From Escherichia coli (GTDB taxonomy: Bacteria > Pseudomonadota > Gammaproteobacteria > Enterobacterales > Enterobacteriaceae), in the NCBI RefSeq assembly GCF_965641715.1, contig NZ_OZ282453.1: a stretch of 64,000 bases of DNA. One strand, given 5' to 3'. The notes under the pieces are model-generated. The model was given only the letters and a program-made list of their open reading frames with translations, did not search any database and had not been told where the DNA came from. Position 1 is the first letter of the stretch, and each line of letters begins with the position of its first letter. The translations under genes were made by a program, and so were the position numbers. Positions 49,023 through 50,016 of the stretch are shown here, piece after piece.

Positions 49023-49765
49023 ACCAATTCCTTTTCAATGAATAATTGGCCTTTAGGAGTGATTCCCTTTGTCTTTAATTCAGTTCTAACTAGTTCTTTA
49101 ATCCAATAGCCTAAGCTCATCATGCAGTTGGATCATAAGACAACGCCCTATAGTGCTCGTGATACTATAGGGCATCTGACCACACTGTTAACTGGAGTAA
49201 CGACTATGGCAGGAATACAGCATAACCAAACTCACCCCAAACTTACATAGCGCTTTCTGGCCGTGAGCATAACAAGGTCCACTCCTCGCTCAAAGCGGAC
49301 TAGAAGGTTAGCTTGTGTCGGACTTTGCGTATTAAATGACTAGTGGTTGAGCCCCATTTCCACAGAAAAAATCAGAGAAACTATACCCAATAGTTGTATT
49401 GAATCACTGACGAGACAGCCTCATATTCATCAGGACTGGTGTACGTCCAATACAGGAGGTTGTGGTGCTGGTTCTCAAATGTGCGCTGGCTATTACGGCT
49501 GTAATGGCGATTTATTGTCTTGCTATTGTTCTTATGGATCGCCTTTCTGACTGATTTCACATTGGCGAGGTAACGGTAGTTAAGTAGAATGGCTGCGGGT
49601 GCTTGAGGCTATCTGCCTCGGGCATGAACACCAACGGCAGATAGAGAAAAGCCCCAGTTAACATTACGCGTCCTGCAAGACGCTTAACATTAATCTGAGG
49701 CCAATTTCATGCTAGACACATGTAGGTTAGCCTCTTACGTGCCGAAAGGCAAGGAGAAGCAGGCT

Positions 49766-49921
49766 ATGAAGCAGCAAAAGGCGATGTTAATCGCCCTGAT
49801 CGTCATCTGTTTAACCGTCATAGTGACGGCACTGGTAACGAGGAAAGACCTCTGCGAGGTACGAATCCGAACCGGGCAGACGGAGGTCGCTGTCTTCACA
49901 GCTTACGAACCTGAGGAGTAA
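49766..49921 (+). CDS. hokD: Hok-family type I toxin (HokD/RelF-like)
   Basis: Internal Met of ORF 49709..49921 gives 51 aa, MKQQKAMLIALIVICLTVIVTALVTRKDLCEVRIRTGQTEVAVFTAYEPEE, matching recalled HokD/RelF; upstream overlapping frame is the mok-like reading frame. Confidence 0.88.
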   Translation: MKQQKAMLIALIVICLTVIVTALVTRKDLCEVRIRTGQTEVAVFTAYEPEE

Positions 49922-49989
49922 GAGACCCGGCGAGGGAGAAATCCCTCGCCACCTCTGATGTGGCAGGCATCCTCAACGCACCCGCACTT

Positions 49990-50016
49990 AACCCGCTTCG
50001 GCGGGTTTTTGTTTTT
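49990..50016 (+). terminator. Rho-independent terminator after hokD
   Basis: cccgc-ttcg-gcggg hairpin followed by tttttgttttt. Confidence 0.55.

Follow-up and report, generated by a model that had tools for sequence, protein, structure and literature searches.

Does a hokD gene that stands without relBE represent a complete toxin-antitoxin module or a leftover of one, and what would such a module do inside its prophage? An earlier note on the DNA studied here, a 64,000-nucleotide stretch of Escherichia coli sequence (hereafter, the window), had described an intact hok/sok-type module at 49600-50016, lacking the relBE genes that precede hokD in K-12 and lying beside an unknown cargo gene. Our analysis indicates that the plus-strand interval 49597-50013 very probably specifies a full-length hok mRNA of the hokD/hokW type, belonging to a complete hok/sok module in a lambda-like prophage; the predicted transcript ends (49597 and about 50013) lie only a few bases from the limits first given. 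At the sequence level, all regulatory parts were found, namely, a hok promoter, tac and fbi, the mok Shine-Dalgarno sequence and ATG, the hok Shine-Dalgarno sequence, a terminator, and a Sok promoter on the minus strand. Observed here are the sequence identity of each of these elements, the predicted folds, and conservation in relatives, the last of which was assessed in a structure alignment of 70 distinct related loci (the window, 67 IMG/VR viral contigs, Stx2 phage I, and a Rac-like phage).

The toxin gene (hok, hokD allele; 49766-49921, plus strand) encodes 51 amino acids followed by a stop codon and is intact, as previously described. It matches Pfam HOK_GEF (E = 3e-23; 81.6 bits, where the cut-off is 22) and PHROG 251, "MokW-like host killing" (E = 8e-33), and the protein is residue for residue that of K-12 HokD (WP_000813254.1, in the HOKD_ECOLI cluster). 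Its Shine-Dalgarno sequence, AAGGAGA, can be read at 49751-49757 on the plus strand, and nucleotide diversity over 49753-49768 is 0.009 among the 70 loci. Near the end of the gene, the plus-strand Tyr47 codon TAC (49904-49906), within a TTACGAA motif, is a candidate site for A-to-I editing by TadA, which would convert Tyr to Cys; hokD mRNA has been reported to be edited by TadA at position 47 (bioRxiv 10.1101/2025.08.07.668861).

Transcription of the toxin gene is predicted to start from the plus-strand promoter TTGGCG-17-TAGAAT (49562-49590), which a consensus scan identified with 9 of 12 matching bases. Its -10 element aligns with TATGAT of the R1-type locus, established as the hok -10 by mutation (PMC9841398), and is retained in nearly all related loci. 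The predicted mRNA (about 417 nt; 49597-50013, plus strand) was given its 5' end by homology and promoter spacing, the Rfam model also beginning at 49597. In agreement with the long structured leader that had been proposed for this locus, the segment 49597-49771 matched the entire Rfam RF01794 model (positions 1-157 of 157) with 115.3 bits (gathering score, 59) and an E value of 1.6e-25. Although the model bears the name "sok," its consensus begins at the 5' end of the hok mRNA (GGGUGCUUGAGG) and extends to the hok AUG; therefore, the plus-strand match was assigned to the hok leader, and its reading as the Sok strand was rejected. Sub-threshold Rfam matches in the 3' untranslated region (isrK at 25.7 bits against 50, rsmX, and a snoRNA) were taken as chance likenesses to terminator hairpins.

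The 417-nt sequence folds to -174 kcal/mol (z = -7.2 against dinucleotide shuffles), and the minimum-energy structure is closed over the whole molecule by a 12-bp helix formed between tac, the translational activator (GGGTGCTTGAGG; 49597-49608, plus strand), and fbi, the fold-back inhibition element (CCTCAACGCACCC; 49971-49983, plus strand), which complements tac except for a single bulged C. In an RNA shortened by its last 45 nt, tac at the 5' end is predicted to refold into a local hairpin, and such 5' refolding after 3' shortening is a step of the published R1 model (PMC9841398). Across the 70 loci, tac and fbi are paired in 99.6% of the alignment cells, the sole changes being to G-U, and the 3' untranslated region hairpin GGCGAGGGA-GAAA-TCCCTCGCC (49929-49950, plus strand; helix 19), also present in the minimum-energy fold, is 99.7% paired, with one pair varying among G-U, A-U, and G-C. 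Because the hokD-group sequences are 95% identical, they show only weak covariation, with compensatory changes at 6 pairs, and this supports the structure without proving it. The stronger argument for tac and fbi lies in the compensatory difference from the R1-type locus, which has different and mutually complementary elements, GGCGCTTGAG and CTGAAGCGCC. The terminator described in the earlier note was recovered as an intrinsic hok mRNA terminator at 49990-50016 (plus strand), in which a hairpin at 49990-50007 with a 7-bp stem, including 5 G-C pairs, is followed by the T run TTTGTTTTT.

An antisense Sok RNA had been expected opposite the leader, on the minus strand at roughly 49690-49760, and a search of that strand for a promoter and an RNA of about 65 nt had been advised. 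The minus strand yielded a putative promoter and a predicted RNA, and the expectation of an antisense gene stands, although Sok lies about 40 nt further upstream than expected: the interval first given covers the promoter and only the 5' end of the RNA. The putative Sok promoter (49724-49752, minus strand) consists of a -35 element TTGCCT (49752-49747), a 17-nt spacer, and a -10 element TAACCT (49729-49724). A generic sigma-70 consensus scan did not call this promoter, the -10 element of which matches 3 of 6 consensus bases; it was recognized instead when the locus was aligned with R1 and hokW and published primers were mapped onto it, and it is identical to the Sp5 sokW promoter. In the Sp5 study, sokW expression was abolished by a -10 mutation introduced with primers YO-421/YO-422 (PMC8621323), and the mutated bases correspond to window positions 49723-49729, the flanking primer sequence being identical in the window; the hokW mRNA probe YO-597 is likewise an exact match at 49725-49754. 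The -35 element is invariant in 70 of 70 loci, and the -10 element is TAACCT in 52 and TAATCT in 15 of them.

With the start set 7 nt downstream of the -10 element and the length taken from the 71-nt complementarity of sokW, so that both ends are estimates, the predicted Sok RNA would span about 71 nt on the minus strand (49717 down to about 49647). Its predicted fold (-30.3 kcal/mol; z = -5.3) comprises a 5' tail of 9 free nucleotides, a long hairpin, and a 3' tail rich in U, and the hairpin helix is 99.4% paired among the 70 loci, with 3 compensatory pairs. A Sok gene is recognized by two features, an opposite-strand promoter within the mok-hok leader and a short RNA that can pair with the region of the mok start, and at the sequence level both appear to be present.

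The upstream overlapping mok-like frame noticed earlier is also there, with a detail absent from that account, as it shares the frame of hok. This 70-codon frame (49709-49921, plus strand) corresponds to an N-terminally extended Hok, and its putative translation start, which is also the region targeted by Sok (49697-49711, plus strand), comprises the Shine-Dalgarno sequence GAGGC (49697-49701), 8 nt upstream, and the ATG at 49709-49711. Both elements are invariant in 70 of 70 loci while lying within the most variable stretch of the locus. The 70-codon frame is also annotated in Stx2 phage I (hokW type), and at least 1000 contigs encode precisely this 70-aa protein. To survey the arrangement more broadly, we compared 81 loci encoding an identical toxin (the window and 80 viral contigs); both scans of viral contigs yielded only loci with a 100% identical toxin, and distant Hok subfamilies lie outside this sample. 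The mok frame is in phase with hok in 58 of the 81 loci, is replaced in 16 by a 19-codon upstream frame whose UGA overlaps the hok AUG (AUGA), and takes the R1-like +1 phase in 2. Such a pattern fits selection that acts on the passage of ribosomes across the region where hok starts rather than on a Mok peptide. The in-frame mok, unlike that of R1, also suggests that the coupling mechanism may differ in detail.

Placing the locus among its known relatives answers the question raised by the missing relBE. The statement that hokD is the third gene of relB-relE-hokD in K-12 was borne out, as that order is present in K-12-type genomes, and relBE is indeed absent here: the list of open reading frames contains no relBE frames between the replication genes and hok, whereas the K-12 relBEF arrangement has relB and relE directly upstream and co-oriented. 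Similarity between K-12-type genomes and the window starts at 49752, just upstream of the hok Shine-Dalgarno sequence. Because homology starts at this point, K-12 is without the hok promoter, tac, the mok start, Sok, and nearly all of the Sok promoter, and the hok Shine-Dalgarno sequence is the only upstream element that it retains. From there on, the K-12 Qin gene (hokD, or relF) resembles the window closely, with an identical 51-aa protein, Shine-Dalgarno sequence, coding sequence, 3' untranslated region, fbi, and terminator and with rem and ydfU downstream, but it is fused behind relE. According to PMC6379469, which cites Ramisetty and Santhosh 2016 on this point, the integration of relBE cut an ancestral hokD frame of about 70 codons to 51. 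The K-12 relB-relE-hokD arrangement is a truncated derivative, from which the relBE insertion stripped all that preceded the hok Shine-Dalgarno sequence, and the window carries the ancestral intact form; the locus can thus be read as the untruncated form of E. coli K-12 hokD, and the odd one out is K-12.

Two further relatives frame the window locus on either side. The hokW-sokW module of Sakai prophage 5 (Sp5) and Stx2 phages (Takada et al. 2021, PMC8621323) shares its position in lambdoid prophages and about 94% DNA identity over 416 nt; the 70-codon in-frame mok/hok frame and tac and fbi are the same, and the Sok promoter and the hok Shine-Dalgarno region are identical. It differs in the toxin C-terminus (FVDYESEK in HokW and FTAYEPEE in the window; 92% identity), at 6 positions within 30 nt around the Sok 5' tail and the mok start, in a 3' end without the window's terminator hairpin, and in its upstream neighbors. 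The R1 hok/sok (parB) is more distant: the place of the -10 element, tac and fbi, the mok start, the Sok promoter position, and the toxin family agree, but the toxins are only 43% identical, mok lies in the +1 frame, and the leader has an extra insertion. R1 hok/sok is also plasmid borne and serves plasmid maintenance, by a mechanism set out in PMC9841398.

The closest match is Escherichia phage mEp460_ev081 (LR597641.1), a viable phage, which is 100% identical to the window over 471 nt, with no difference detected in the module, 99.9% identical over 10.5 kb that include the neighboring PD-T7-1 gene, rem, ydfU, rusA, and Q, and 98.7% identical to the window prophage over 20.6 kb. In its record, the hok frame is annotated as "MokW protein" and Sok is unannotated. 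The prophage in the window starts at about 38600, at the integrase, and the module, flanked by the replication genes on one side and by rem-ydfU-rusA-Q on the other, has the same orientation as early rightward transcription. In all likelihood, then, the hok/sok here is the hokD (equivalently, hokW-type) allele of an mEp460-like lambdoid prophage, situated in its early-right region. Matches covering 80% or more of the 471-nt query were found in 3927 of 5426 complete E. coli genomes, where the sequence is annotated hokD, and the same genomes carry hok/sok copies at a median of 2 and up to 9 places. The module at 49597-50013 is therefore an already known and ordinary one, at its usual prophage position and under the RefSeq annotation hokD, and there is nothing new in the relBE-less 70-codon form, published as ancestral hokD (PMC6379469), or in the near-identical hokW-sokW, already characterized by experiment (PMC8621323). 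In practice, the analysis assigns exact positions to the Sok gene, hitherto without annotation, and to the Sok promoter.

The transcription, processing, toxicity, and biological role of the window locus are inferred by homology. Following R1 hok/sok and Sp5 hokW-sokW, a weak constitutive promoter would produce a stable 417-nt hok mRNA, held closed and untranslatable by the pairing of 5' tac with 3' fbi, until slow 3' trimming removes fbi, the 5' end refolds, and the mok ribosome-binding site is exposed. The short, unstable Sok RNA from the opposite strand (49717 to about 49647) would use its free 5' tail to pair with the region of the mok start, blocking the translation of mok and, by coupling, of hok, and the resulting duplex of Sok and hok mRNA would be a substrate for RNase III. 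Once Sok is no longer supplied, whether because the prophage is induced, the element is lost, or transcription is shut off, Mok/Hok would be translated, and the 51-aa membrane peptide Hok would depolarize the inner membrane. Since early rightward transcription reads hok in the sense direction, we suggest that read-through from the early rightward promoter after induction may also interfere with the convergent Sok promoter.

By the same reasoning, the module most likely helps host lysis and phage release after induction, as shown for hokW-sokW. In the Sp5 study, Sok is lost and HokW appears after RecA-dependent induction, and hokW-sokW is a working pair that brings lysis forward by about 40 min and doubles Sp5 release (PMC8621323). 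HokD, for its part, served as an earlier-characterized toxic positive control in a toxicity assay (bioRxiv 10.1101/2025.08.07.668861), although an intact sequence gives no guarantee of killing from a single copy. We rate three other accounts, namely, prophage addiction, abortive infection, and silence, each below this role in lysis.

Stabilization of the prophage is the second possible role. A module that killed cells losing or excising the prophage, i.e., by post-segregational killing, would agree with its presence in most lambdoid prophage copies. We nevertheless consider such addiction unlikely, for the following reasons: (i) a cured cell follows excision, which usually takes place during induction, when the cell dies anyway; (ii) the chromosomal hok loci that have been tested gave no post-segregational killing (bioRxiv 10.1101/2025.08.07.668861); and (iii) deletion of hokW-sokW had no reported effect on growth in normal conditions, a result that concerns growth and not prophage retention (PMC8621323).

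The module could also act against other phages, and here the neighboring cargo gene has to be considered. This gene (47673-49022, minus strand; 449 aa), which lies outside the module and is included for context, had been called unknown, a description to be corrected: it matches PADLOC profile PDLC04073 (PD-T7-1) with an E value of 4.2e-157 over residues 8-447, covering profile positions 2-448 of 452, and is a predicted full-length homologue of the PD-T7-1 anti-phage protein. Pfam, NCBIfam, and PHROGs assigned it no function, and PADLOC alone gave one. The PD-T7-1 family was found by functional selection in E. coli and occurs in prophages and defense islands (PMC9519451), and the gene lies at the same place in mEp460. 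The resemblance of a toxin-antitoxin module plus cargo to a defense-island organization, raised in the earlier note, therefore holds in part, given the PD-T7-1 neighbor and the defense genes found in this slot elsewhere; the pairing of hok/sok with this particular cargo does not hold, the module being present in 3927 and the cargo in 200 of 5426 genomes.

Across 78 viral contigs, 100 protein clusters are represented in the 3.2 kb that precede hok, and the defense matches obtained there with PADLOC include a retron RT-Toprim, an Old-family nuclease, PDC-S06, PDC-S39, PDC-M68B, a BstA-like protein, KwaB, a CBASS cyclase, and a methyltransferase. Other occupants of the slot are an FRG-domain gene in LF82, relBE in K-12, and a different hypothetical gene in FDAARGOS_497, and neither the commonest upstream neighbor (277 aa, 32 of 78 loci) nor many other occupants had a defense match. 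One slot thus holds different defense genes in related elements, and it behaves as a cargo hotspot, often occupied by defense genes, whose conserved right border is hok/sok. No relevant account of a named lambdoid hotspot bordered by hok emerged from a literature search.

In an abortive infection, an incoming phage would shut off host transcription, Sok would decay, and Hok would kill the cell, alone or together with PD-T7-1. Apart from the adjacency of PD-T7-1 and the various defense genes in the slot of other prophages, this account can draw on R1 hok/sok, which on a high-copy plasmid lowered T4 plating, as cited in PMC8621323 and bioRxiv 10.1101/2025.08.07.668861. Several observations nevertheless make it quite improbable. 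Hok/sok is conserved whatever the cargo, as the genome counts above attest, so that it does not appear as a co-selected part of the neighboring defense system, and the 277-aa gene that most often adjoins it is among those without a defense match. PD-T7-1 is a single-protein family in PADLOC, and its homologues are also found in defense islands outside prophages (PMC9519451), so that no dependence on hok is shown. In a published genome-wide survey, hok was enriched in prophages and not near defense systems (12% versus 9.4% at random; bioRxiv 10.1101/2025.08.07.668861), and the Sp5 module helped its resident phage and did not block phages (PMC8621323). Finally, that the intact-looking locus is a silent remnant, unexpressed or harmless at single copy, is very unlikely. 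In its favor are the inactivity of the K-12 chromosomal hok loci (PMC1635323), the failure of rifampicin to activate several chromosomal loci (bioRxiv 10.1101/2025.08.07.668861), and the possibility that a hokD-type peptide, with Tyr rather than Cys at position 47, needs TadA editing for full toxicity. Against it, no regulatory element is missing here and the elements expected to be most constrained do not vary, the identical locus resides in the viable mEp460_ev081, hokW-sokW is expressed from a single-copy prophage with HokW protein made on induction (PMC8621323), and a single chromosomal R1 hok without Sok is lethal (PMC9841398).

Beyond the question of its role, the locus showed an uneven pattern of variation. 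The stretch 49701-49723, which surrounds the mok start and at the same time encodes the free 5' tail of Sok, has a nucleotide diversity of 0.32 among the 70 loci, compared with 0.06-0.10 in the other untranslated parts and 0.013 at third codon positions of hok, and it occurs as 18 alleles, the main types of which include those of the window and hokW as well as CCATATCTATG-CTCTAC and CTCAATCTATG-AACGGC. This variability fits either relaxed constraint or a diversified specificity of Sok for its target among co-resident copies. Because Sok is encoded opposite its own target, a change in the block would keep the two matched and make them orthogonal to other copies. Co-resident copies have different Sok-tail alleles in all four genome pairs compared, but about 89% of random pairs would differ as well and co-resident prophages are of different phage types in any case, so that this comparison has no power. 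We offer only as a tentative and rather doubtful proposal that the 22-nt block is a fast-evolving specificity determinant, in which case several prophage hok/sok modules in one cell would not cross-neutralize, and, separately, that the module forms the fixed right border of a previously unnamed lambdoid defense-cargo hotspot. These side observations may be of use for the study of antisense specificity and of the lambdoid defense hotspot.

A last observation concerns the DNA immediately upstream of the hok promoter, where a 30-aa hydrophobic open reading frame with a strong Shine-Dalgarno sequence occupies 49462-49554. It lies within an unannotated 300-bp segment that is present in 1728 genomes, and its changes between strains are mostly synonymous.

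The right-hand part of the window, from ~38600 to 59577 and beyond, shares 98.7% identity over 20.6 kb with the viable lambdoid phage mEp460_ev081 (mEp460) and is an mEp460-like lambdoid prophage. Its left end is marked by an integrase near 38600, to the left of which lies chromosomal sequence, including a region resembling dimethyl sulfoxide reductase. Within this prophage, the DUF977/replication genes and hok flank a slot (47362-49277) that is a variable cargo hotspot: in 78 hok-bearing viral contigs (L090-L169), the 3.2 kb located 5' of hok held 100 protein clusters. The occupants of the slot in viral contigs include a retron RT-Toprim, Old, PDC-S06, PDC-S39, and PDC-M68B, as well as a BstA-like protein, KwaB, a CBASS cyclase, and a methyltransferase; the same slot carries an FRG-domain gene in LF82 and relBE in K-12.

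In the window, the slot holds a 449-aa gene on the minus strand (47673-49022), which the earlier note had treated as an orphan. A full-length match to PD-T7-1 (PADLOC, E 4e-157) identifies its predicted product as the PD-T7-1 anti-phage protein. The gene was found in 200 of the 5426 complete E. coli genomes searched, and it is labelled merely as hypothetical in both RefSeq and the mEp460 record. Upstream of this gene, a perfect palindrome (GCCCTATAGT...ACTATAGGGC) at 49145-49191 overlaps its best promoter-like site (minus strand, TTAACA-16-TATAGT); the palindrome may be an operator.

To the right of the slot, a 300-bp segment (49277-49577) was present in 1728/5426 genomes, where it sometimes adjoins chromosomal genes directly, at a prophage remnant. 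This segment contains an unannotated hydrophobic ORF of 30 aa (MVLVLKCALAITAVMAIYCLAIVLMDRLSD; 49462-49554, plus strand) with a GTG start and an AGGAGG Shine-Dalgarno sequence. Changes in this ORF between strains were mostly synonymous, and it appears as a hypothetical protein in a few records.

When mok configurations were compared among loci encoding the identical toxin (L010-L089, e.g., L011), three configurations were found: (i) a 70-codon mok in frame with hok (58 loci), (ii) a 19-codon upstream ORF whose UGA overlaps the hok AUG (16 loci), and (iii) an R1-like +1 mok frame of 68 codons (2 loci). The Sok hairpin region was deleted or replaced in four loci (L033, L051, L053, and L079). In the alignment of 70 related hok loci (A4), the block at 49701-49723 (columns ~105-130), which surrounds the mok ATG and doubles as the 5' tail of Sok, was hypervariable, with a diversity of 0.32 versus 0.06-0.10 in the remaining untranslated parts and 18 alleles among the 70 loci. 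The mok Shine-Dalgarno sequence and ATG were invariant inside this block, and its variants may represent Sok/target specificity alleles.

Within hok itself, the Tyr47 codon (49904-49906) sits in TTACGAA, the motif reported for TadA A-to-I editing, with Tyr-to-Cys recoding, in hok mRNAs (bioRxiv 10.1101/2025.08.07.668861). Elsewhere in the prophage, Rfam matches above threshold were obtained for DicF (43414-43465, minus strand), STnc100 (54083-54273, plus strand), a cspA-type thermoregulator leader (57371-57787, plus strand), and two plus-strand tRNAs downstream of Q (53134-53206 and 53310-53383); the equivalent region of the related locus L001 is annotated with tRNAs for Ile and Arg.
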